A DNA stretch of 64,000 bases. Source: Rhodospirillaceae bacterium (GTDB lineage: Bacteria; Pseudomonadota; Alphaproteobacteria; Rhodospirillales; CALINB01). The number at the start of each line of letters is the position of its first letter. The stretch's first letter is position 1. The notes under the pieces are model-generated. The model was not told the DNA's origin, did not search any database, and was given only the letters and a program-made list of their open reading frames with translations. Location: the NCBI GenBank assembly GCA_038114465.1, contig JAYNQW010000014.1:13453-77452 (forward strand). The letters run 5' to 3'. Of this stretch, positions 1 to 39,811 are shown piece by piece. The position numbers were made by a program, and so were the translations under genes.

Positions 1-2
1 AA

Positions 3-1097
3 GCAGAACCGGGGCGGTTTCAAGGAATTCATCCGACTGGGCCGGTTACCGCATCGCTTCTGGCCGTCGGTGAGACCACACACCGCTCGGGCCGCGACAT
101 CCTGACCGCCTATCACGTTGGCGTGGAAGTTGCCTGCAAAACTTTCGAAGCAACCCATGTCGATCATATTCTCAACGGCTTTCACTCGACCGGCACCTGC
201 GGCATGCTCGGTGCTGCGGCCGGCATCGGCAATCTTTACGGCGTCGACACTGACACGGCACGCCAAGTCATCGGCATTGCCGCTGCACAATCGTGCGGCC
301 TGCAAGCCAACTTCGGCACGATGACAAAATCTTATCATGTCGGACGCTCTGCAGAATGTGGCATCCTCTCGGCGGACCTCGCAACCCGAGGCTTTACCGC
401 ATCAATAATCAGTCTTGAATCCGACCGCGGCTTTTTTCAAGCCGAAGGCGGCGGCATTGAAGAACACCGCATTCGCGGCAAGCTCGGCAATCCCTGGTCT
501 TTTGCCGATAGGGGTATTTGGATCAAGCCGTGGCCGACTGGCAGCCTCGGTCATGCCGCCATGACCCTGATGCTTGAACTCGTCGAAAAACACGACATCA
601 GGCCGGATAATGTCGAACATGTTGCGGTTAAAACTAGTGACAACATCCATCATACACTGCTTCATCACCGGCCCAAAACCGAACTTGAAGCGAAATTTAG
701 CCTCGAGTTCTGTCTTGCAGCACTCCTCATTGAGCGCAAACTAACCCTATCCGATTTTACCGACGATTATGTGCTCCGCCCTGACATCCAAAACGCTATC
801 GAGCGGATGGAATACAACACGTTCTCGCAAGCGGAATCAAAGGAACACGGATACGGCATCATCACGTCCTTCATCGATATCGAGTTAAAAGACGGCACAA
901 AAATTTCCGAACGCTGCGATTTCGGCAAAGGCAGCAAGGCTAACCCGATGTCATTTGAAGAGGTCTCAAATAAATTCCGTGATTGTGCGGCCTTCGCAGA
1001 TTGGCCGAAGGATAAAACCGAAACGGCGATTGAACTCGTCGCGACCCTTGAAGACGTGCCCGATGTCGCCAAGCTTACCGAAGCCCTCGGTGCATAA
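3..1097 (+). CDS. MmgE/PrpD family protein (2-methylcitrate dehydratase-like), 5'-truncated by the window edge
   Basis: The frame is open from nt 3 with no stop, so the listed ORF 123..1097 is only the Met-initiated part. Motifs such as HSTGTCGMLGAAAG and SYHVGRSAECG are typical of the C-terminal half of MmgE/PrpD proteins. Confidence 0.8.
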   Translation, partial: AEPGRFQGIHPTGPVTASLLAVGETTHRSGRDILTAYHVGVEVACKTFEATHVDHILNGFHSTGTCGMLGAAAGIGNLYGVDTDTARQVIGIAAAQSCGLQANFGTMTKSYHVGRSAECGILSADLATRGFTASIISLESDRGFFQAEGGGIEEHRIRGKLGNPWSFADRGIWIKPWPTGSLGHAAMTLMLELVEKHDIRPDNVEHVAVKTSDNIHHTLLHHRPKTELEAKFSLEFCLAALLIERKLTLSDFTDDYVLRPDIQNAIERMEYNTFSQAESKEHGYGIITSFIDIELKDGTKISERCDFGKGSKANPMSFEEVSNKFRDCAAFADWPKDKTETAIELVATLEDVPDVAKLTEALGA

Positions 1098-1108
1098 AAA
1101 AACACGCC

Positions 1109-1975
1109 TTAGGTATCGAAGCCGTAAAGCTTGCCTGGATTGTCAACAAAGATCATTTTGCGGGTCACTTCATTTGGCACCCACTCTTCCATGATGTCGA
1201 CAAAGTCCGCCGCATCCGCGCCGGCTTGATCCTCATAATCCGGGAACGGCCAATTCAACGCCCAAACCAACCGGTCCGGGCGAGCCTCGACCAATATTCG
1301 GATGCGCTCGGCGGCATCCTCAAAACGGGGCGGTCCGGATTGGGAAGAATAATAGACGCCTGATATCTTGACCCAGACCCGGCCTGTCTCGATCAACTTA
1401 ACGATAGCCTTAAACTCGTCGTCATCCGCACCGACTCCACGCGGTGTGCGGCCAATGTGATCGAATATCAGCGGCACCGGCAAGTTCGAGAGACTGGGTG
1501 CGGCCTCCGCGATCCAGCGGTCCCGGCTGTCCTGAATTTGAATGACCCACCCGAACGGTTCGATCAAACGGGCAATCTGTCCCGCCGAGTCAGGTGAAAG
1601 CTCGTCGCCCGAATGCGATATTCGAATGCCGCGGATACCGCCAGCGTGCAATTCTTCAATTTCTTTTTTTGTCGCGTTGGGCTTAATCACCACTGTACCG
1701 CGCGCCCGGTCCTGACCTAACACTTTGATCGCATCGAGGGTACAACGGTTATCGAAGCCATAGAGCGACGGTTGAACGATAACGCTGCGCTCGATACCCG
1801 TGCGCGTCAGCATATCCCGATAAGCTTCAAGCGGTGCGTAACGCGATTCACGACCTTCGACGTGCGGATACTCATCCTGCAGGCCGTATATATGCGAATG
1901 CGTATCGCAGGTATACCCAGGCAGCTTTAAGCGAGGCTTTCGGCCGTGATCTTCAGTGCGATTGACGGCGAACAT
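1109..1975 (-). CDS. Amidohydrolase-2 family protein (LigI-type lactonase-like)
   Basis: 288 aa with an N-terminal CDTHSHIYG metal-binding motif and a DH..GR motif. The fold is the PF04909-type. It is a paralog of 5363..6238. Confidence 0.7.
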   Translation of the reverse strand: MFAVNRTEDHGRKPRLKLPGYTCDTHSHIYGLQDEYPHVEGRESRYAPLEAYRDMLTRTGIERSVIVQPSLYGFDNRCTLDAIKVLGQDRARGTVVIKPNATKKEIEELHAGGIRGIRISHSGDELSPDSAGQIARLIEPFGWVIQIQDSRDRWIAEAAPSLSNLPVPLIFDHIGRTPRGVGADDDEFKAIVKLIETGRVWVKISGVYYSSQSGPPRFEDAAERIRILVEARPDRLVWALNWPFPDYEDQAGADAADFVDIMEEWVPNEVTRKMIFVDNPGKLYGFDT

Positions 1976-3503
1976 AACGCCTACCCTGTCCGTACAAATA
2001 ATAGGCGTCTGCGGTATCTTTGGGTTTTTTTATCCGGTTCATAATGAGACGGAATGTCGGGGCTACGGCGACCAAAACAGCCAAGGCCAACATGACGGCT
2101 GAAATGGGTGATGTCAGGAAGATCATCGGATCACCGTTATTCCCCATTAACGCCCGCCTGAAATTGGTTTCCATCATCGTTGCCAACACCAAGGCCAATA
2201 CAATCGGTGCCGGGTGGATATCCACTTTGCGCATCAAGTAACCGGCAATCCCGGCAATGATCATGACCCAAACCGGGTACATGCCGTTTTCGTTGGTGTA
2301 GGCGCCAAGAATGCAGATAGCGGTAATCCCTGTGGCAAGCGCACCAGTCGGAATCAAGGTAACTTTTACCCATAACCGAATTCCGAACAGCCCCAGCGCT
2401 AACATGACCGGCAAGCCGACCAACAACGAAGCAAAAATTGCATACGGGAACGTCGGGTTGTCGACGAACAACATCGGACCCGGTTGGATACCCTGAATCA
2501 TCAAGCCGCCGATCATGATCGCCGTGCTGGCAGAACCAGGAATACCGAGTGTCAGTAACGGCGCCATCGCGCCGGACACAGCGGCATTGTTCGCAGTTTC
2601 CGAGGCGACAATACCACGCGGATTACCCGTGCCATACGTTTCCGGGTCTTTCGCCGTTCGCTTCGCTTCAGCATAACTGGTCAACGCTGCAATCGTCGCA
2701 CCGGCACCCGGCACCACGCCAATCACATAACCGATGACTGCGGAGCGAACGAGGTGAAATTTCATCCCGCGGAACAAATCAAAAGACATCGCAATCTTAG
2801 GCGTCTCTTTCATTTCCGGCGGTTTGCGGCGAATGGTCTCCAACATGAAGAACACTTCGGAGAGCGCAAATAAGCCGATCAGAGCCGGCAGTAGCGGGAT
2901 ACCGCTGAGCAACGATTCCGTAATGGTAAACCGCGCATTACCCGAGATCGGGTCCAGACCGATGGTCGCAAGCAACAAACCAAACAACAGGCCAATAAAG
3001 CCTTTCAAAAACGAACCGCTACTGAGCACACCGACCAAACTGAGGCCGAGCACAGCGAGCGCAAAATATTCCGGCGGACCGAAAATAATAGCGATCTTGA
3101 CGATCCACACAGCTGTAAAAACAAGTAAAATCGTTCCGACCAAAGAACCAAATCCTGACCCCAAAATCGAATAGGTCAGCGCTTTACCGGCTTCGCCTTT
3201 AACCCGCATCGGATATCCATCGAAGGCCGTTGGCGCCGCGGCAGGCGTACCAGGTGCATTTGCCAAAATAGCGGGGATTGCGCCTGAATATTCGGAAGCC
3301 ATATAGATAGCAACCATCAGCACGATGGAAGGCACCGGCTCCATATGAAAGGTGAAAGGAATAATAACGGCGAGGGCGATACTGGAAGTCATGCCGGGAA
3401 TTGCGCCAACGACATAACCGATCAAAGTTCCGATAAAAAGAGCCGTGAGGGCATTGGATCTGAATACCAGATCAAAGCCACCCATGAAATTTTCAATGAT
3501 CAT
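1953..3503 (-). CDS. tctA: Tripartite tricarboxylate transporter large permease TctA
   Basis: 516 aa polytopic membrane protein with TctA-type motifs (GxxxGxxPGxG repeated). It sits downstream of tctC and tctB. Confidence 0.9.
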   Translation of the reverse strand: MIIENFMGGFDLVFRSNALTALFIGTLIGYVVGAIPGMTSSIALAVIIPFTFHMEPVPSIVLMVAIYMASEYSGAIPAILANAPGTPAAAPTAFDGYPMRVKGEAGKALTYSILGSGFGSLVGTILLVFTAVWIVKIAIIFGPPEYFALAVLGLSLVGVLSSGSFLKGFIGLLFGLLLATIGLDPISGNARFTITESLLSGIPLLPALIGLFALSEVFFMLETIRRKPPEMKETPKIAMSFDLFRGMKFHLVRSAVIGYVIGVVPGAGATIAALTSYAEAKRTAKDPETYGTGNPRGIVASETANNAAVSGAMAPLLTLGIPGSASTAIMIGGLMIQGIQPGPMLFVDNPTFPYAIFASLLVGLPVMLALGLFGIRLWVKVTLIPTGALATGITAICILGAYTNENGMYPVWVMIIAGIAGYLMRKVDIHPAPIVLALVLATMMETNFRRALMGNNGDPMIFLTSPISAVMLALAVLVAVAPTFRLIMNRIKKPKDTADAYYLYGQGRRYVRRQSH

Positions 3504-10096: not shown

Positions 10097-10825
10097 CTAA
10101 AACGAAGGGATTAAGCGCACTTTTGTGCGATTACGGTGATCCACATATTCAAATTGTTTGTGCTGAAATGGCCGTTCCGGATAGTCCCGAATTTCGATGA
10201 TCGGGCGCACATTTCGCACCAGCTTATTTATTAAAGATTTTGCATTCTCAGCATGGGCATCCTTGACCAAAACATAGGTTGGATAATCTTCCGTTGTTAA
10301 TGCAAAAAAGTCATAACCCTCTTCAGCAACGAATTCATTGACGGCATCAACAACCCCAAATTGCAATTCCTGGACCTTTTTTTGGTTCGTATAGTCATGC
10401 CCCAATATTAAACCGTCATTTTTTAATTTTGGAGCAAATGCGCGCAAATCTTCCTTCACGGCCTCATAGGTATGCATTCCATCGAGGTAAATCCAATCAA
10501 AATAATTATCGGGAAACTGCGGGGCCGCTTCAGTCGATAATTCGCGATGCAACACAGCCCTGCCCTTCTTTTCGTGACGGCGAAATGCTCGCTTCACAAG
10601 TTGGTAGTTTTCTTCATGTTCTTTGTTTTGTGAGTTCGTTGGGTCATCCCGATAATCATCTCGATCGATAAACCGCCACGGATCAATTAAGTGAAATTTT
10701 GAAGGTTTGTTTTTCTTAAAAATTTCGCGCGAAAAATCACCCCGCCAAACACCAATCTCCGCAATCACACCCTGTTGAGGCAGTAAAGCCAAAAGATCGA
10801 CACGCGGCATGGGCAACAAATACAT
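10097..10825 (-). CDS. Class I SAM-dependent methyltransferase (TylF/Methyltransf_24-like)
   Basis: 242 aa with a SAM-binding-like VIAEIGVWRGDFS motif and IYLDGMHTYEAV...LILGHDY, as in sugar and macrolide O-methyltransferase-like proteins. Confidence 0.6.
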   Translation of the reverse strand: MYLLPMPRVDLLALLPQQGVIAEIGVWRGDFSREIFKKNKPSKFHLIDPWRFIDRDDYRDDPTNSQNKEHEENYQLVKRAFRRHEKKGRAVLHRELSTEAAPQFPDNYFDWIYLDGMHTYEAVKEDLRAFAPKLKNDGLILGHDYTNQKKVQELQFGVVDAVNEFVAEEGYDFFALTTEDYPTYVLVKDAHAENAKSLINKLVRNVRPIIEIRDYPERPFQHKQFEYVDHRNRTKVRLIPSF

Positions 10826-10875
10826 AACTAAATCCTAAAATTATTTAATCATTTTTGAAACACGACGTTAAAGCA

Positions 10876-11856
10876 CTAAGCATTTTGATTTTGATGCCAC
10901 TGCCAAGCCGTGCCGACAACGGTTTCAAGGTCGCTGTACTGTGACGACCATGAAAGCTCTTTTTGTGCCAGCGCCGTATCAGCAACAAGTGCGGCAGGAT
11001 CGCCGTCTCTACGCGGTCCAATTTTGACAGGAAAATCCCGGCCAGATATCTTTTTCACGCACGCAACAACATCCTTGACGGAAGAACCAATACCCGCGCC
11101 TAGATTGATAGCCGGCGGCAATTCACCAGTGATTAACTTTTCCATTGCCGTAACGTGCGCGACGGCTAAATCCGAGACATGAATATAATCACGCACGCAA
11201 CTACCGTCTTCAGTCGGATAGTCATCACCAAAGATTTTCACTTCTGGCAGCTGCCCCAATGCAGCACTAATAACCCGAGGGATTAAGTGTGTTTCCGGAT
11301 CATGATCCTCTCCGATTTCGCCCTCCGGATCGGCACCTGCTGCATTAAAATACCTTAGCGCAATTGAGTTCAATCCACCCGCTTGACGCTCTTCAGCCAA
11401 AATATTTTCGACCGCGAGTTTTGTTTCTCCGTACGGATTGATCGGCTGAACCGGCAAAGATTCATCGAGAACGCTTTGCTCAACATTTCCATAAAGCGTG
11501 CAGCTGCTCGAAAACACCATGACAGGACATTTCTTCGCCTTGATCACATCGATCAGGACTTTCGATCCATCTATATTGTTTCGTATATATTTTTCGGGAT
11601 CACGAACCGACTCTTCAACCAAACCGCAAGCAGCAAAGTGCAAAACCGCGACAGGTTGATAATCATTAAAAACACTTTCAAGAATTTCTTTTTCCAGCAG
11701 ATCGCCGAGCACTAAAGGCCCCCATTTGACCGCCCAATCGTGCCCCGTCGACAGATTATCATAGATCACCGGCTGATAGCCGTCTTCAAACAGGCGCTTA
11801 CAGGCATGACTGCCGATATACCCCGCACCACCAGTGACTAAGACGTGTTTTTTCAT
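10876..11856 (-). CDS. galE: UDP-glucose 4-epimerase
   Basis: 326 aa with an N-terminal GGAGYIGSH Rossmann motif and the YGETK catalytic motif. The architecture is that of an extended SDR. Confidence 0.85.
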   Translation of the reverse strand: MKKHVLVTGGAGYIGSHACKRLFEDGYQPVIYDNLSTGHDWAVKWGPLVLGDLLEKEILESVFNDYQPVAVLHFAACGLVEESVRDPEKYIRNNIDGSKVLIDVIKAKKCPVMVFSSSCTLYGNVEQSVLDESLPVQPINPYGETKLAVENILAEERQAGGLNSIALRYFNAAGADPEGEIGEDHDPETHLIPRVISAALGQLPEVKIFGDDYPTEDGSCVRDYIHVSDLAVAHVTAMEKLITGELPPAINLGAGIGSSVKDVVACVKKISGRDFPVKIGPRRDGDPAALVADTALAQKELSWSSQYSDLETVVGTAWQWHQNQNA

Positions 11857-11871
11857 CTTTATTCTGTTCGT

Positions 11872-12783
11872 TTATTGAAACGGCGCATCATCGTACCGAA
11901 GACGCGTCTTAACGGTACTATTTTGTGTTGTCGACAACGAAAATTCGCGGTTTTGAAAATCTTCTCCGGCCAGATGAACAATCCCCAACGGATGGAACGG
12001 CTCGTTCGGCTCGACCAGCAATCCGCTTTGAACATCGACCATGGGCGCTGCTAAGGCACAGAACCAATTGCACGTTGCCGGCAGCAATGCCGCGGGCGCC
12101 TTATCGCCGAAGACCACATGATTGATCGCCGTTTGTTCGACCAGCTTAAAATGCAAATACGGCCAGCCTTTACGCGGCCAAAGGGTTTTCCGGTGCAAGG
12201 CGCGCTTAATTGCATCGGCCCAAAGGCTCCAATGAGGAGCATCATGAGATAACGCGAACACGCCGGCATTGAGGATAGGATTGCGGCCCAGCCGGTCGGC
12301 TATTTTCCATCCGTAGGACCATTTGAAACTTTTAAAATTCTGCGTCCGGCCCAAGCGTTTCGGACGCTTGTAAAAAGTATTATAAGCCCGGTCGATTTGC
12401 GGCGTGATGGCCAGCTTCCCCTGCCGCGCCGCTTCGACATAAATTTCGACCGCCGACCAATCCTGAACCCAGGCATCGGCATCGATGAAATGATAAACAC
12501 CGTAGCCGGGGAAATAGCGCGGTAGGAAGGGGCGCGCAAGCAGTGCCCGAAAATGTGATGGAGCATTAAAACAAGTCGGGACGTCGATATCCCATTCGGG
12601 TTCAACACGATGAGCGACCCACGTGTCTAGCCATTCCGCCTGCTCTTCCGTAAACCCGAGATCGAGTACGGAAATCGGCACGGACTGCCCTTCAGGCTTA
12701 TCCTGAATCGACTCGATCAAGCCCTTCAAAAGATCGAAGTAATTTCGATCGGCTGCACAAACGATGGTAAAATTCTGACTCAC
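11872..12783 (-). CDS. Putative glycosyltransferase (GT8-like nucleotide-diphospho-sugar transferase fold)
   Basis: 303 aa with an N-terminal FTIVCAADRNY motif and a DxD-like IDADAW motif. It sits next to galE and a methyltransferase. The assignment is by motif only. Confidence 0.45.
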   Translation of the reverse strand: MSQNFTIVCAADRNYFDLLKGLIESIQDKPEGQSVPISVLDLGFTEEQAEWLDTWVAHRVEPEWDIDVPTCFNAPSHFRALLARPFLPRYFPGYGVYHFIDADAWVQDWSAVEIYVEAARQGKLAITPQIDRAYNTFYKRPKRLGRTQNFKSFKWSYGWKIADRLGRNPILNAGVFALSHDAPHWSLWADAIKRALHRKTLWPRKGWPYLHFKLVEQTAINHVVFGDKAPAALLPATCNWFCALAAPMVDVQSGLLVEPNEPFHPLGIVHLAGEDFQNREFSLSTTQNSTVKTRLRYDDAPFQ

Positions 12784-33941: not shown

Positions 33942-34334
33942 ATGCTGAAACTCTGCAATCTTGAAGAAATTCCGGACGGTGAAGCTCGCGGCTTTTGCGT
34001 CGAAGGCCCTCAGCTCGCTCAACGGCTTATTGTCATTCGTCAAGGCCAGGAAGTATTGGGTTATGTCGATTATTGCCCGCATACGGGATCACGGCTCGAC
34101 CCAGGCCGAAATAGATTTTTAGATGACGCCGGCATATTCATCTGCTGCGCCATCCATGGTGCTTTATTTAAAATCAAAGACGGTGAGTGTGTTGACGGGC
34201 CGTGCTTTGGCGACAAGCTGATCCCCGCTCCGGTTCAAGCTAAAGACGGCAGCATCTATTTGGAACACGATAACGTCGAACTTGTCGACGAACTCTCTCA
34301 GTGGATGTCGGATTTAGAACCAAAAACCGGCTGA
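33942..34334 (+). CDS. Small Rieske [2Fe-2S] domain protein (ferredoxin-like)
   Basis: 130 aa with C-P-H ... C-A-I-H Rieske ligand motifs (YCPHTG ... CCAIHGALF). There is no oxygenase catalytic domain. Confidence 0.8.
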   Translation: MLKLCNLEEIPDGEARGFCVEGPQLAQRLIVIRQGQEVLGYVDYCPHTGSRLDPGRNRFLDDAGIFICCAIHGALFKIKDGECVDGPCFGDKLIPAPVQAKDGSIYLEHDNVELVDELSQWMSDLEPKTG

Positions 34335-34388: not shown

Positions 34389-35651
34389 ATGGCGCGCTTG
34401 AAAGACATCCCCGAAGGCGAACGCGATATGTTGCAACGCTTGCCGTTGCCGCAATTCGACAGCACCCCGTTCGTAAAAGGACCGGTGCTGGCAAAGCGCC
34501 GGGTTTCGATCGTTTCGACGGCGGCCCTGCAAAAGCGCAACGACAAGCTCTTTTATAAAGGCGAAGCCAGTTATCGGGTTATCCCGGGCGATACCGATCC
34601 AAACGACATCATCATGGCGCACACCTCGGTCAACTTCGACCGTTCCGGCTTTCAACAGGACCTGAATATTTGTTTTCCCTTGCAACGCCTCCATGAGCTC
34701 GTCGATGAAGGCTTGATCGGCTCGGTCGCGGATTATCATTACACCGTGATGGGCGGCGTCGAGCCCGAGCGCAACGAAGACACCGCGCGCCAAATCGCCG
34801 CCATGATGAAACGCGAAGGCGTCGATACGGTTCTCCTGGTGCCGATCTGACCGAAATGCACGCGCGCCGTCGGCGGGCTGGCCCATTACTTCGAACAGGA
34901 AGGTCTTTCTACCACGCAAATCAGCCTGATCCGCGAACACAGCGAGGCGATTAAGCCGCCGCGCGCGCTGTGGGTGCCGTACGAGCTCGGCCGTCCGCTG
35001 GGCAAACCCAACGACAAAGATTTTCAAAACCGGGTCCTTCGAGCCTGTCTAGAACTGTTGAGTGCTGACAGCGGCCCCGTGCTCGAGGATTATCCAGAAG
35101 ACGTCCCCGCCGAAGCCGCAAACGATGACATGACCGGGATGGTCTGCCCGATTGATCTACCTGCACCGCCGTCGGACGACAGCGAATTGGTGCAAAATCT
35201 TTTGACGGAGATCGGGCAAATCGCGCCCTGGTATCAGATCGCCGTGCAGGAACGTGGGCGCACCACGGTCGGCATCAGCACGCTCGACATCGAAGACGCC
35301 GCGCGTTTCCTGGTCGATTTTATCGAAGACCCGACAACCACAAGCATCGTCGAAAAATTCAAAACCGGGCCGTTGCTCAAATTCGTCTGTGAAGACCTTA
35401 AGGCGTTTTATTCCGAAGCGATGTCGGCGCAACCAGGCATGTCGTCGAGCCTCGCAGTCGAGAACTGGCTGTGGAACGACACCGTGCTCGGCAAAACGCT
35501 TTGGAAGTTCCGCGACGAGAACCTCGATCACCCGGATGCCTACACGCAGTATTTTGCGCGCCGCTCGCTCATACCGGATCGGCAAATTCATTTCAAAGGC
35601 GCGGCGCACTTCGAAACATTGCAACCGCTCGATAAACAGAGCGCGTCTTAA
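34389..35651 (+). CDS. GrdB/PrdB-family (glycine/sarcosine/betaine/D-proline reductase component B-like) putative selenoprotein; in-frame TGA at 34848-34850 read as Sec (U-P-K-C)
   Basis: ORFs 34353..34850 and 34974..35651 share one frame and are separated only by a single TGA, with no other stop between them. The joined sequence GVDTVLLVPI-U-PKCTRAVGG...PPRALWVPYELGRPLGKP parallels, from memory, the clostridial GrdB region VDAVILTST-U-GTCTRCGA...GANRIVP..IPHPLGNP. The start could be the ATG at 34389 or the GTG at 34353. Confidence 0.7.
34858..34882 (+). promoter_or_regulatory. Candidate bacterial SECIS-like hairpin downstream of the UGA
   Basis: A hand-folded imperfect GC-rich hairpin has the core CGCC-GUC-GGCG (34865-34875). 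Flanking pairs are interrupted by one G.G mismatch and bulges. The apical loop sits about 19 nt after the UGA. No folding calculation was run. Confidence 0.3.
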
Positions 35652-35677: not shown

Positions 35678-35941
35678 CTACGGGTTCGTCTTCGGTGAGA
35701 TTTCGCCGTCGGCTTTTAACTTCCACCACATCCTGAGGCATTGTGTGCGGGTGGGATTCACAACTCCGTCAAGCAGGAACTTCGCTTTGACTTGTCCTTG
35801 TACGACAATGGTTGGCAAACCTGTTTGTTTGCTTAAGTCTTTTTCCATCCAGATGCACGGACTAAAGCTCTCGTAGCGGTAATAGGTCGCCGCCGAGCCG
35901 AAGATTAAAATACCAACGATGATAATAGCTGCCGTCTTCAT
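35678..35941 (-). CDS. Small membrane-anchored hypothetical protein with two Cys
   Basis: 87 aa with an N-terminal TM or signal anchor (MKTAAIIIVGILIFGSAATYY) and Cys at positions 29 and 68. Its ATG lies 3 nt after the stop of the upstream DsbA-like gene. Confidence 0.5.
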   Translation of the reverse strand: MKTAAIIIVGILIFGSAATYYRYESFSPCIWMEKDLSKQTGLPTIVVQGQVKAKFLLDGVVNPTRTQCLRMWWKLKADGEISPKTNP

Positions 35942-35944
35942 TAA

Positions 35945-36580
35945 TTATTCTTGTTGTTCTTTCTCTTTCGCTTTTTCCATCACGGCTTGCACGAATTGCT
36001 CGAGGTTCTCATAAGGCTGCGCGCCGACGAGGCCGTAACCTTGGGCAACGAATGTCGGTACGCCGGTTACGCCGTAATCGCGCGATTTCTGCCAATCGGC
36101 GTCGACGGCACTTTTATACGTCCTTTCATCGACAACTTCTCTGGCTTGATCGACCAGCAAGCCGACCGACTTAACGATCTCCATTAAAATTTCGACGTCG
36201 GCGATGTTTTTGTTATCGACGAAATATGCCCGAAATAAGGCATCGTGCAGGGTCTCACCATTTTCCTGGGTATCGGCCCAAACGCCGAGTTCCTGGGCGA
36301 GTCGGCTGTTATAGGTATGCGTCCGATACCCATATGGCAGGCCTTCGGCGTCCATCTGCGCCTTCATTTCGGCATTTTTTTGATCGATATCCCAGCCACG
36401 GGCGGCATAAAACTCTTTCATCCCCCGGCCCTCCTGCGGCGTGTCGGGATGAAGTGGAAAATGCACCCACTTGGTTTTAATGTCGAACGACTTTTTGAGT
36501 TTTTCTATACGCCCGGTACAGAGATAACACCACGGTCAGACGTAATCGGAAAAAATCTCCACGGTAATCGGTTCGCTCAT
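35945..36580 (-). CDS. DsbA/FrnE-like thiol:disulfide oxidoreductase, putative selenoprotein; in-frame TGA at 36536-36538 (minus strand) read as Sec (U-P-W-C)
   Basis: The listed ORF 35945..36466 lacks the thioredoxin-fold N-terminus and active site. Extending it upstream in frame gives MSEPITVEIFSDYV-U-PWCYLCTGRIEKLKKSFDIKTKW-VHFPL... with the ATG at 36580. The UGA falls exactly where the first Cys of the family's F.D..CPWCY CxxC motif would be. Confidence 0.75.
36512..36535 (-). promoter_or_regulatory. Candidate SECIS-like hairpin downstream of the UGA (weak)
   Basis: A hand-folded minus-strand stem CC(g)UGGUGU / GUACCGGG has several G-U pairs and a 7-nt loop UAUCUCU directly after the UGA. 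The loop has no G, so the match to the bacterial SECIS model is poor. Confidence 0.2.
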
Positions 36581-36592
36581 TTTTAACCCTTC

Positions 36593-37381
36593 TTATTCAA
36601 AGCGAATTGAAATCGGTTCGAGTTCAGAGAAACGAGCTTCGAACGTATCGCCCGCCTTAATCGGTGTCAGCCCCGTCATGGAACCGCTGATGATAATCGC
36701 ACCGGCGGCAATGCCTTGGCCTGTTTTTGCAAGCTTATTAGCAAGCCATACTAGCGAGTTAACCGGGTTATCCATCACCACCGAACTGTTGGCTTCGACT
36801 TTAACCTCGCCATTATGCAAAAACGTGCAATCGATATTCCCCAAATCAATGTCCTTGTTGAACGGCCGGACCATGCCCGTCACGTAACCTGCTTGAACGC
36901 CGTTATCGCAAATCATCTCCGGAAATCCGACTTTCCAATTTTGGGTTCGCGCATCGACGATCTCGAACATGCCGAGCACGCCGTCGATGGCATCAAGCGC
37001 GCTTTCGAGCGTTACGCCGGGACCGTCGAGGTCCCTGCCGAGCCTTAAGCCGATTTCGCATTCTATTTTTGGGTCGATCAGTGTCGCGCAATCGATCGAT
37101 CGTCCGGAAACCGTGCGTCCGGCGCCGAAGGTGTGACCGTATACCGGCTCATCAACACCAAAACGTGCCTGCGACTCCGCACCCGTCGCCCCGACCTTGA
37201 AACCGGCGACCTTGCCGCCGGCGGACACTTTTTTAGCGACATAAACATCTTGTGCCGCGTAACAATCTTCAACCGAAAGGCCGTCGAATTCCGAGGAAAT
37301 CGGCGCAATCGGTTGGCGTGATGTTTCGGCTTCGAGAAACCGCTCGGCAATAGTATCGAGTGTGGATGGATCGGCGGACAT
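36593..37381 (-). CDS. 2-keto-4-pentenoate hydratase / 2-oxohepta-3-ene-1,7-dioate hydratase family protein (MhpD/HpcG-like)
   Basis: 262 aa with AGFKVGATG...PVYGH...IECEIG motifs typical of MhpD-like FAH-fold hydratases and decarboxylases. Confidence 0.75.
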   Translation of the reverse strand: MSADPSTLDTIAERFLEAETSRQPIAPISSEFDGLSVEDCYAAQDVYVAKKVSAGGKVAGFKVGATGAESQARFGVDEPVYGHTFGAGRTVSGRSIDCATLIDPKIECEIGLRLGRDLDGPGVTLESALDAIDGVLGMFEIVDARTQNWKVGFPEMICDNGVQAGYVTGMVRPFNKDIDLGNIDCTFLHNGEVKVEANSSVVMDNPVNSLVWLANKLAKTGQGIAAGAIIISGSMTGLTPIKAGDTFEARFSELEPISIRFE

Positions 37382-37426
37382 GCGTGATCTTCCTGACTAA
37401 CGTTTTGCTATGAAGGTCCTAACGGC

Positions 37427-39811
37427 TCAACGCAGCCGTTGCAAGCTCGCTTGCGCAGCGGCTTCGACGATGGCGTCCGTATCAATCCGGTAATGATGAT
37501 AAAGATCGGGGACATCGCCGCATTGACCGAACTTTTCGACCCCCAAGGGTACGACGTGGTACCCGCCGGTCGCGCCGAGCCAATCAAGCGTTGCGGGATG
37601 GGCGTCCAACACCGTCACCAGAGAAGCATCGGGTGCGATAACCGACAATATGCGTTCGATGTGCGCGCTGGCGTTTTGATCGCCCGCCTGGCGTGCTTTC
37701 GATGCCGCCGTCCATCCTTTGTGCAACCGGTCGGCGGATGTGATGTTCAACAACCCGGCACCGGGAACATCTTCGATAACTGTTTCATAAGCCTCAATCG
37801 CCTCGGGTGCGACGGGCCCTGAAAACGCAATGACAAGCTCGCCGCCCGGCGCCGGTTCACGCAGCCAATAAGCGCCGGCGAGAATGTTTTCTCGCAACTC
37901 GACGTTCATGTCCCGTTGCGGCTGATCAATAGGCCGGGTCACCAGACGCAGGCAAACCGACGCCCCTTCCGGTTTTTGCATGTGCTCGAACCCCCAGGCC
38001 ATCATGACGGCCACTTCATCGGCGAAGGCCGGTTCGAACGCTTCCAACCCGTCCTGGCCCATGGTGATGAGGTTCGTATAATTCGATTGATGCGCGCCCC
38101 CTTCTGGCGCGAGCGCCAAGCCCGACGGAGTCAGGATCAGCATAAACCGCGAGTCTTGGTAGCACGCGTAATTCAGTGCATCCAAACCGCGGCCGATAAA
38201 AATATCATAGAGTGTGCCGATGGGCAGCAGACGCGCGCCGAAGAGATGCTCGGACACACCAAGCTCGGCCAACAGCGTAAAAAAGTTGTTTTCCGCGATA
38301 CCCAATTCGATGTGCTGACCGCTCGGCGATTTTTCCCATTTCTGCGGCGACGGCACCTGTTCGTTGCGAAAAGCATCCGGTTCCTCTCGACGATGAAAAA
38401 CACCTTTACGGTTAACCCAGCCACCGAGGCTGGTCGAGACCGTCACGTCTGGTGATGTCGTCACAATGCGTTTCGTAAACTCGTTATCCTGACGGCCAAG
38501 TTCGGTCATAATCCGCCCAAAGGTTTCCTGCGTCGAAAGCTTCGCTCCTTCTGGGGTTTCTATCCCCTTTGCCGGAATTACCGGTGCCCAGGAAACTTCC
38601 TTCTTGCGGGTTCGTTCGCGTAAACGCTCGATAATGCCGTCGAACTCATCATCGGTCATTTCAAGGCCCGCCAAGGGATCCCACTCCTGCCCCTTGGGAA
38701 TTTTCAGCGACTCGCGGAACTGATCGATTTGCTGATCGGTCATCAACCCAGCGTGGTTATCCTTGTGACCCGCAAACGGCAGCCGGTGACCTTTAATCGT
38801 ATAAGCAACAAAACAATGCGGCGCTTCACTATCGACGCTGTGAAATGCTTCAAGCAAGGTTTCCATGTCATGGCCGCCGAGGTTCGTCATTAAGGCATGC
38901 AATGCCGCATCGCTATGACTATCGAGCAGTTCCTTGAGACCACTGGTCCCTTTCAAGTCATGGGATAAATGCTCGCGCCAGGATCGCTCGCCCTGAAACG
39001 AAATCGCCGAATACAGCATGTTCGGACAGGTTTCGATCCATTGACGTAACGCTTCACCGGCAGGCCCTTCAAAGGCTGCTTCGAGGAGCTTGCCGTACTT
39101 CAGAACCTTGACTTCCCAGCCGACGGTGCCGAAAAAGTCGTGAATGCGTTGCGACAGATAATCGTGTACGACACCATCGAGGCTTTGGCGGTTGTAATCG
39201 ATAATCCACCACGTATTGCGGATGTCATGCTTCCAGCCTTCCAGCAAAGCTTCGAAAATGTTGCCTTCATCGAGTTCCGCATCGCCGGCGACGGTAATCA
39301 GCCGGCCCATTTCATTCTCGGGCGGGACGAGTTTCTGCAAATGAACATAATCTTGCGCCAAGGACGCGAATAGCGTCGCGGCGACAGGAAGCCCCATCGA
39401 GCCGCCGGAGAAATCGACCGCGAACTTATCTTTCGTGCGCGATGGATACGATTGCACGCCGCCGAAGGCGCGAAAGCTTTCCAAATCTTGTTGCGTCAAT
39501 TCGCCCATCAAATAAAGCAACGAATGCAATGTCGGGGCACCGTGGGGTTTCAGCGCCACGCGGTCCTTCGGTTTGAGGACGTCCATCAATAACGCCGTAT
39601 GGATCGTATTGGCCGAAGCGACTGAGGACTGGTGGGCACCGACTTTCAAACCGTCCCGCTTCGGGCGGATGTTATTGGCGTGGTGGATCATCCAGCACGC
39701 CAACCACAGTAACTTTTGCTCGAAGGCCTGAAGCTCGGCAACCGTCTGCGGTGTGACCAAGTTCCCTTTGGCCCCAGCTTTAACCGGAAACGGTGTAATG
39801 GATGCGTTCAT
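37427..39811 (-). CDS. AceE-like ThDP-dependent enzyme (homodimeric pyruvate dehydrogenase E1 / transketolase-like), divergent and short
   Basis: 794 aa. The N-terminal region (HHAN...GAHQSS.AS...HGAPTLHSLLYLMGELTQQDLESFR..GG.QSYPS...FSGGSMGLP) parallels the AceE ThDP-binding region. The central and C-terminal parts are transketolase-like. Confidence 0.65.
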   Translation of the reverse strand: MNASITPFPVKAGAKGNLVTPQTVAELQAFEQKLLWLACWMIHHANNIRPKRDGLKVGAHQSSVASANTIHTALLMDVLKPKDRVALKPHGAPTLHSLLYLMGELTQQDLESFRAFGGVQSYPSRTKDKFAVDFSGGSMGLPVAATLFASLAQDYVHLQKLVPPENEMGRLITVAGDAELDEGNIFEALLEGWKHDIRNTWWIIDYNRQSLDGVVHDYLSQRIHDFFGTVGWEVKVLKYGKLLEAAFEGPAGEALRQWIETCPNMLYSAISFQGERSWREHLSHDLKGTSGLKELLDSHSDAALHALMTNLGGHDMETLLEAFHSVDSEAPHCFVAYTIKGHRLPFAGHKDNHAGLMTDQQIDQFRESLKIPKGQEWDPLAGLEMTDDEFDGIIERLRERTRKKEVSWAPVIPAKGIETPEGAKLSTQETFGRIMTELGRQDNEFTKRIVTTSPDVTVSTSLGGWVNRKGVFHRREEPDAFRNEQVPSPQKWEKSPSGQHIELGIAENNFFTLLAELGVSEHLFGARLLPIGTLYDIFIGRGLDALNYACYQDSRFMLILTPSGLALAPEGGAHQSNYTNLITMGQDGLEAFEPAFADEVAVMMAWGFEHMQKPEGASVCLRLVTRPIDQPQRDMNVELRENILAGAYWLREPAPGGELVIAFSGPVAPEAIEAYETVIEDVPGAGLLNITSADRLHKGWTAASKARQAGDQNASAHIERILSVIAPDASLVTVLDAHPATLDWLGATGGYHVVPLGVEKFGQCGDVPDLYHHYRIDTDAIVEAAAQASLQRLR

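Follow-up and report, generated by a model that had tools for sequence, protein, structure and literature searches.

A selenoprotein family named "DsbA-like protein" has been reported by Zhang, Fomenko & Gladyshev (2005, Genome Biol 6:R37), who described it from nine Sargasso Sea sequences, with membership of COG2761, a UxxC motif (U, selenocysteine, Sec) and a predicted selenocysteine insertion sequence (SECIS). The family is listed again in PMC1794560, PMC9312934 and PMC13188914; the 2006 listing gives Anaeromyxobacter, Desulfovibrio and Desulfotomaculum, it has been relisted in 2022, and a 2026 review has the entry "DsbA-like protein form 1, PF01323, UxxC", with PF01323 as the only model given. 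The bacterial SECIS itself is a hairpin located directly after the UGA codon, with a small apical loop that contains a G (PMC1088965, Sargasso Sea data). FrnE, the described enzyme to which our gene is compared below, is a cytoplasmic disulfide reductase/isomerase; in many of its homologs a C-terminal CxxxxC motif regenerates the active site, while some homologs do without it. Here, we have analysed a gene of the DsbA/FrnE type, interrupted by an in-frame TGA codon, on the minus strand of a 64-kb window (i.e. the whole stretch of 64,000 nucleotides (nt) from contig JAYNQW010000014.1 of assembly GCA_038114465.1, whose positions are used throughout); the host is an uncultured marine alphaproteobacterium, whose Lon protease shares 89-90% identity with proteins that are labelled "MAG: Rhodospirillales bacterium".

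Our reading, to which we assign a probability of about 0.9 on sequence and comparative evidence, is that the product of 36580..35945 (minus strand) is a cytoplasmic thiol-disulfide oxidoreductase of 211 residues, belonging to the FrnE subgroup of the DsbA family, with Sec at position 15 (U15-P-W-C18). This reading is carried by the reading frame, the fit to the protein family, the alternation of Sec and Cys codons in one alignment column, a hairpin that is conserved and covaries, and the linkage of selA, selB and selC to orthologs, each of which is directly observed and is presented below. As judged by these data, the gene is a member of the already known selenoprotein family that has been truncated by automatic annotation; the earlier reading of this DNA from its letters and open reading frames (ORFs), hereafter the sequence-only reading, had treated the find as notable, which overrates it, as the family (COG2761, UxxC) was described in 2005 and occurs in every later catalogue.

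The interrupted reading frame and its fit to the FrnE subgroup

The elements of the gene and of its start signal are located as follows:

35945..36580, minus strand: coding sequence of the predicted DsbA/FrnE-like selenoprotein, 211 residues with Sec at 15, plus the TAA stop (from translation, Pfam DSBA and FrnE 5cnw)
36536..36538, minus strand: in-frame UGA, codon 15, where CPWC has its N-terminal, nucleophilic Cys, giving U-P-W-C (from the sequence, the alignment with FrnE Cys22 and the related loci)
36527..36529, minus strand: codon of Cys18 (UGU), the resolving Cys of UxxC, the third base of which is the 5' partner of a covarying lower-stem pair (from the alignment)
36587..36591, minus strand: Shine-Dalgarno-like AAGGG, with a 6-nt spacer to the ATG at 36580 (read from the sequence)

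The minus-strand frame runs from the ATG at 36580 to the TAA at 35947-35945, with 211 codons before the stop; its read-through translation consists of MSEPITVEIFSDYV, the UGA codon and PWCYLCTGRIEKLKKSFDIKTKWVHFPLHP..., the latter in frame with the listed ORF. The ORF list holds only 35945..36466 (minus strand, 173 amino acids (aa)), which starts at a GTG, the first start codon past the TGA, and in public assemblies the gene has been called as a DSBA fragment of 158 or 173 aa. Most orthologs likewise begin with a methionine at position -14, counted from the Sec codon. The sequence-only reading had described this arrangement, and its description is borne out in all its parts: the 173-aa entry from the internal GTG is present at 35945..36466, the translation from the ATG at 36580 joins it in frame across the TGA, the entry taken alone is without the β1 strand and the active-site helix, both of which are supplied by the 38 upstream codons according to the Pfam DSBA match, and the TGA falls exactly on the first Cys of CxxC, aligning with Cys22 of the FrnE CPWC.

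UGA is otherwise an ordinary stop codon in the window, where 56 long ORFs end in TAA (28), TAG (15) or TGA (13). We have rejected an alternative genetic code, with UGA read as Trp or Gly, since table 11 leaves the long ORFs intact and 13 of the 56 end in TGA.

The fit to the family is close along the whole protein. With U written as C, residues 6-197 match positions 1-190 of the 191 of the Pfam DSBA profile PF01323 (E 1e-36, 127 bits, with a gathering cut-off of 25.6 bits), a full-length match that arises only when the UGA is read through; the alignment to DsbA/FrnE profiles that the sequence-only reading had proposed for the 211-residue protein therefore covers the PF01323 profile almost completely. 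The best match in the PDB is FrnE of Deinococcus radiodurans (5cnw/5cp1; E 3e-23), with residues 2-194 aligned to 9-212 of the chain, and SCO1869 is also among the closest solved structures by sequence. In the alignment with FrnE, EIFSDYV-U-PWCY stands over DIWSDIA-C-PWCY, with U15 on Cys22 of 22-CPWC-25; further on, GVTGVP, a motif that appears to be of the cis-Pro type, aligns with GITGVP of FrnE. The FrnE alignment spans the entire domain, which in DsbA proteins has a thioredoxin fold with an inserted helical domain and a cis-Pro loop.

The redox motif U15-P-W-C18, with Sec for the first Cys, is located directly after VEIFSDYV (β1), at the start of the first helix, and the protein begins five residues before β1; this leaves no space for a signal peptide, and therefore the protein should be cytoplasmic. 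A CP(W/F)C site and the absence of a signal peptide, which characterise the FrnE subfamily (COG2761 / cd03024), are both found here, the former as UPWC. The C-terminal CxxxxC is absent: the 211-residue translation ends in ...QAVMEKAKEKEQQE and has no Cys beyond residue 21. As CxxxxC is also missing from the FrnE proteins of S. roseofulvus and D. maricopensis, it does not define the subfamily. Our scan of NCBIfam has returned no fitting model, and none that is dedicated to a DsbA-like selenoprotein family; the Rcas_1661/DsbG-like (seleno)lipoprotein model NF041057 has been rejected, as it scores only 38 bits (cut-off 190) and matches the C-terminal third only.

As a separate observation, the segment U15-P-W-C18-Y-L-C21 of the window protein has a UxxCxxC spacing, as in the motif quoted for GrdB; the same spacing occurs in five related loci (L038, L085, L111, L120 and L167 in our numbering).

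The Sec/Cys column and the hairpin after the UGA codon

In order to compare the codon at the active site across relatives, we have read the DNA of 80 related loci in species-representative genomes, of the 80 best matches in metagenomes and of four copies of the window sequence. The patterns used for the metagenome scan (YNSR[LF]AQE and [LV]VGAQPYE) are located far from the active site, while the genome scan included the pattern DYVCPWCY and is biased towards Cys forms. In the 163 loci that are readable at the codon aligned with 36538..36536, this codon is TGA in 107 (the window copies included), TGC in 37 and TGT in 19. TGA occurs in 78 of the 80 best metagenome matches and, despite the Cys bias, in 25 of the 80 loci from the genome scan. 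The protein search has shown the nearest relatives (69-99% identity) to be N-truncated calls of 155-189 aa without exception, and the more distant ones (54-68% identity) to be full-length proteins of about 200 aa; every N-truncated database ortholog whose contig we have fetched (L085 and L167-L171) carries TGA, including all five of the further contigs L167-L171. The genome labels of the TGA-type loci are Burkholderiales, Rhodospirillaceae, Stellaceae, other Alphaproteobacteria, Pseudomonadales, Granulosicoccaceae, Gammaproteobacteria and Acidobacteria gp5.

The peptide encoded before the TGA is conserved as well, with the consensus M-x-E-P-[VI]-T-L-E-[IV]-F-[ST]-D-Y-V, in which F-5 and D-3 are invariant. 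Over the 14 upstream codons of 96 distinct sequences, the mean variability at the first, second and third codon positions is 0.81, 0.38 and 1.20 bits; the variability upstream of the TGA is highest at third positions, as in translated sequence that is under purifying selection. These results bear on three points that the sequence-only reading had left to be checked: the internal GTG is not the start of the orthologs, whose DNA encodes the same N-terminus followed by TGA or by TGC/TGT; the upstream codons are conserved in relatives, with the third positions most variable; and both states have been found among the orthologs at that position, with 107 TGA against 56 TGC/TGT.

Two rival explanations are addressed by this column. 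According to the first, the gene is a pseudogene or has lost its N-terminus, i.e. translation does end at the TGA, and the GTG at 36466 yields no more than a 173-aa protein devoid of the active site. It is consistent with gene callers, which yield exactly a 158- or 173-aa product, and with UGA being a normal stop in the window genome; we consider it hardly credible, however, as a nonsense mutation would not be kept in one column over 107 loci of Alpha-, Beta- and Gammaproteobacteria and Acidobacteria, the frame is conserved on both sides of the stop and the covarying hairpin described below is kept, neither of which is expected of a dead gene, and the 173-aa product would be without the β1 strand and the active-site helix. 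According to the second, the TGA stands for a TGC or TGT that was misread in sequencing or assembly, from either of which it differs by one base; this has a negligible probability, since four public assemblies of the window sequence, independent of each other and made from different samples (L001-L004, in ENA, JGI and Logan), have the identical TGA, which is also kept in relatives at 61-85% identity (L038, L085, L167 and L168). Taken together, the column data and the coding pattern upstream rule out, as far as sequence comparison goes, that the gene is dead, that it begins at an internal codon or that the TGA was misread.

The sequence-only reading had also proposed a SECIS prediction on the minus strand behind the TGA, and a SECIS-like hairpin has indeed been found there, with covariation in the TGA forms. 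Its parts in the window, and in the consensus of the TGA forms (numbered from the U of UGA as position 1), are the following:

36499..36528, minus strand: SECIS-like hairpin within the coding sequence (from folding and the comparative alignment of TGA forms)
36528-36526 with 36501-36499, minus strand: lower stem GUU/AAC, 3 base pairs, beginning 7 nt after the UGA; recovered by RNAalifold
36522-36516 with 36510-36504, minus strand: upper stem UCUGUAC/GUAUAGA, 7 base pairs, beginning 13 nt after the UGA
36515-36511, minus strand: apical loop CGGGC, 5 nt, beginning 20 nt after the UGA
Positions 11-13 with 38-40, consensus lower stem: G-Y-U with A/G-R-C
Positions 16/17-23 with 29-35/36, consensus upper stem: CUCAGUAC with GUAUUGAG
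Positions 24-28, consensus apical loop: CGUGC in 59 and CGGGC in 17 of 83 sequences, with a G always present

The distance of 20 nt from the UGA to the loop falls in the range of known SECIS elements. In the upper stem of 83 distinct TGA-type sequences, standard pairs are formed in 90.7% of the cells, and compensatory double changes occur in five of the eight pairs; changes on both sides are found in 29 cells, against 5.3 in column shuffles, none of 500 shuffles reaching the observed number, and the pairing falls to 17-52% when the 3' arm is slid by 1-3 columns. The lower-stem pair 12-39 is C-G in 41 sequences, U-A in 25 and U-G in 6; column 12 is the synonymous third base of the Cys18 codon (UGC/UGU) and column 39 the third base of a Lys/Arg codon, so that their covariation is not explicable by selection on the protein.

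The window stem differs from the consensus by a swap of A-U to U-A (CUGUAC/GUAUAG for CAGUAC/GUAUUG), which turns Ser21 (AGU) into Cys21 (UGU, 36518-36520, minus strand) and leaves Ile25 unchanged; Cys21 may be a by-product of the RNA structure and not a selected residue.

The hairpin is not formed in the 55 Cys-type sequences, where the two loop-closing pairs occur in only six and eight of the 55, and where the encoded peptide is G-D-N-R-V-K-K-L or A-S-A-R-V-A-R-L, as against S/C-T-V/G-R-I-E-K-L in the TGA forms. We also note two Cys-type (TGT) homologs that keep most of the stem sequence (L015 5568-5615 and L037 1003-1050), with the remnants CTCAGTACC...GCATCGAG and CTCAATACCGGGCGCATCGAG; this suggests a recent replacement of Sec by Cys in these two loci.

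Selenocysteine genes, neighbouring genes and descent

In five loci with the TGA-type gene (L009, L014, L095, L108 and L157), ARAGORN has identified a tRNA-SeC (anticodon tca) at a distance of 0.2-3 kb from it; these make up five of the 14 tRNAs in all related loci. In L009 and L095, selA and selB are the two genes located just upstream of the tRNA-SeC, both above the equivalog cut-offs (selA by TIGR00474, E 1e-167 and 3e-171, respectively; selB by TIGR00475, E 4e-127); selB is also found in L157 and selA in L100. None of the 56 Cys-type loci has selA, selB or tRNA-Sec nearby. In Pfam scans of L009 and L095, the ORFs between selC and the DsbA-like gene match no family. In six related loci in all, sel genes and tRNA-Sec genes are located 0.2-3 kb from the TGA-type gene, at the following positions:

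L009 (labelled Burkholderiales): 1-3048
L014 (labelled Alphaproteobacteria): 3180-3273
L095 (unlabelled metagenome contig): 162-3475
L157 (unlabelled metagenome contig): 43-2004
L108 (unlabelled metagenome contig): 10-105
L100 (unlabelled metagenome contig): 1-1308

This linkage bears on a third rival explanation, in which the UGA is recoded with the help of the hairpin but another amino acid is inserted, i.e. Cys by a tRNA-Sec-like tRNA, or Trp/Cys by near-cognate read-through. In a few bacteria, selC-like tRNAs have been reported to insert Cys at UGA in a SelB-dependent manner, sequence computations cannot tell the inserted residue, and neither selD nor selA has been seen in the 64 kb of the window. 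On the other side, the tRNAs adjacent to the orthologs are typed as tRNA-SeC and stand beside a genuine selA above the equivalog cut-off, and lineages that use Cys carry TGC/TGT and lose the hairpin; we therefore regard this explanation as very unlikely. Insertion of Sec at the position of the nucleophilic Cys, as the sequence-only reading had proposed, is strongly supported by the Cys/TGA column, the hairpin and the sel linkage, in so far as comparative data can indicate it.

In the mechanism that we propose, the UGA at 36538..36536 would not be read as a stop; the hairpin downstream of it in the mRNA (36528..36499) would serve as a SECIS of the bacterial kind and bring SelB-GTP with its Sec-tRNA(Sec) to the ribosome, where Sec would be inserted and the protein completed. 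Catalysis would then be FrnE-like, with the selenolate attacking a substrate disulfide and Cys18 resolving the mixed selenenylsulfide, and the resulting intramolecular Se-S bond would be reduced by a cellular reductant, an external one being expected because the C-terminal CxxxxC of FrnE is missing.

Several points weigh against the insertion of Sec in this protein. None of selA, selB, selC and selD has been found in the 64-kb window or its 10-kb flanks: the window has no tRNA-Sec, the Pfam labels, which cover about 30 kb of it (its two ends and 26.6-47.4 kb) as well as both 10-kb flanks, include no sel genes, and tblastn with SelA and SelB of L095 has given no match anywhere in the window; such an absence says little for a multi-megabase genome. 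The window hairpin taken alone is not above shuffled stability (-9.8 kcal/mol, z = -1.0), and window segments of 51 and 76 nt fold no better than their shuffles (z = -1.0 and +0.1, respectively); this single-sequence test is uninformative, and the case for the hairpin therefore rests on the comparative evidence. As the hairpin lies inside a coding sequence, its conservation is in part due to protein constraint, and the covariation counts given above are counts per sequence, not per independent evolutionary event. Rfam at the gathering threshold has returned three tRNAs only for the whole window, with no match to a SECIS family, and a permissive Rfam scan of 36380-36620 only chance-level matches to a CRISPR repeat and a snoRNA. 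Finally, the reviews state that the family has been identified by bioinformatics and that its functions are largely uncharacterised, and in the family papers that we have compared, selenium has not been demonstrated by experiment for any member.

A second selenoprotein candidate is located 1.7 kb from the DsbA-like gene and is convergent to it:

34389..35651, plus strand: PrdB/GrdB-like gene, with an in-frame TGA at 34848-34850 in the context VPI-U-PKC (from translation and TIGR04483)

The match to the PrdB model TIGR04483 runs across the TGA (residues 34-224, E 2e-30), with 106 bits against an equivalog cut-off of 300, while the Pfam GRDB match stops two residues before the TGA; a C-terminal extension of about 270 residues is without a family match, and public gene calls split the gene into products of 153 and 225 aa. 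A Rieske ferredoxin gene (33942-34334) is located 54 nt upstream of it. PrdB-like UxxC selenoproteins are among the most abundant ones in the Sargasso Sea data (PMC1088965), and the window gene is probably this marine PrdB-like selenoprotein. When the entire window was scanned for frames interrupted by a TGA in a redox-type context, only the DsbA-like and the PrdB-like gene emerged as credible; a third candidate at 404-402 (minus strand) has been set aside, being antisense to a gene of the PrdD/MmgE family. As a second selenoprotein candidate, the PrdB-like gene supports Sec decoding in the organism of the window. It adjoins the DsbA-like gene only in close relatives and is missing beside the L168 ortholog, so that a functional pair of the two proteins is not supported.

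Two further genes flank the DsbA-like gene on the same strand:

36593..37381, minus strand: gene of the FAA-hydrolase family (2-oxopent-4-enoate / 2-oxohept-4-ene-1,7-dioate hydratase-like; TIGR03220, E 2e-55, below the curated cut-off)
35678..35941, minus strand: hydrophobic ORF of 87 aa, starting 4 nt after the stop of the DsbA-like gene; no Pfam or NCBIfam match

The TAA stop of the hydratase gene is located 12 nt before the ATG of the DsbA-like gene, and the two genes are probably in the same operon; their pairing is conserved only in the marine lineage of the window (L167; L168 2370-3158). The hydratase is MhpD/HpaH-like, under the equivalog cut-offs, and is preceded by a gene for a 794-aa protein of the E1 type (transketolase/PDH-E1-like) both in the window (36593-39811, minus strand) and in L167 (2595-5833). 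The 87-aa ORF also follows the DsbA-like gene in L085, with 61% identity, and L167 has a gene of 89 aa in this place. Across the family as a whole, the gene neighbourhood is not conserved: a tblastn search with 12 window proteins against the 160 related loci has found common neighbours in the closest relative only. The relative L170 (69% identity) has a second DSBA-family gene of full length about 5 kb downstream (10816-12188), next to rhodanese and Zn_ribbon_8 (FmdB-type) genes; both of the latter families include known selenoproteins.

The descent of the two states has been explored with a rough tree (neighbour-joining, midpoint root) based on the residues C-terminal to the active site and the SECIS region. 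The 101 Sec forms are found in one large clade, with three small Cys groups nested inside it, and a separate, mostly Rhodospirillales Cys clade is located outside; at least four changes between Sec and Cys are needed.

Significance and comparison with known systems

The main value of these findings is a correction of annotation, as public records give a fragment of 158 or 173 aa without the active site; since no dedicated NCBIfam model has been found, hundreds of such metagenome genes are probably truncated likewise. The covarying hairpin, its absence in the Cys forms and the proximity of sel genes could aid a family-specific model, and could guide the choice of a member for a first biochemical test of Sec in an enzyme of the FrnE type. 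The hairpin covariation, the selA-selB-selC linkage, the dominance of Sec and the UxxCxxC variant have a modest value for specialists, and the current understanding of selenoproteins is unchanged by the finding.

A wider reading can be put together from these results, which we regard as unlikely when taken as a whole: in aerobic soil and marine Proteobacteria and Acidobacteria, the Sec machinery may have the FrnE-like protein as one of its main clients, and the gene would be passed on together with selA-selB-selC, which are adjacent to it in several genomes of the Burkholderiales type; Sec would be the ancestral and dominant state of the clade, with only occasional reversion to Cys; and the marine subclade to which the window belongs would have acquired UxxCxxC, with Cys21 arising through a compensatory change in the SECIS stem, as a possible redox partner of the PrdB-like selenoprotein.

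Four described systems are comparable to the locus. The neighbouring gene resembles the selenoprotein B family (PrdB/GrdB) in its PrdB match across a UxxC Sec site, but differs from it by its score below the cut-off and its unmatched C-terminal extension. The hairpin resembles the bacterial SECIS (the E. coli fdhF type and the model of Zhang & Gladyshev) as a hairpin within the coding sequence, 3' of the UGA, with a small loop that contains a G, and here usually GU; its primary sequence, however, is specific to the gene family, and it is a putative target of SelB. D. radiodurans FrnE (DR_0659; PDB 5cnw, 5cp1) has the same placement of a CPWC-type site, the GVP motif and no signal peptide, but has Cys22 in place of Sec and its own C-terminal CxxxxC tail (residues 239-244).

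The closest system is the DsbA-like form 1 selenoprotein family. The covariation of the hairpin, the linkage to selA-selB-selC and the predominance of the Sec form in the clade have not been found in the family papers that we have compared. The family and the window gene have in common PF01323/COG2761, a single Sec in UxxC at the N-terminal position of the active site, a hairpin that follows the UGA and has a small loop with a G in it, discovery in marine metagenomes and widespread Cys homologs. The published representatives of the family are AACY01178397 and NIP15863.1; the window gene shows no difference in kind from the family, the likeness being one of family and motif.

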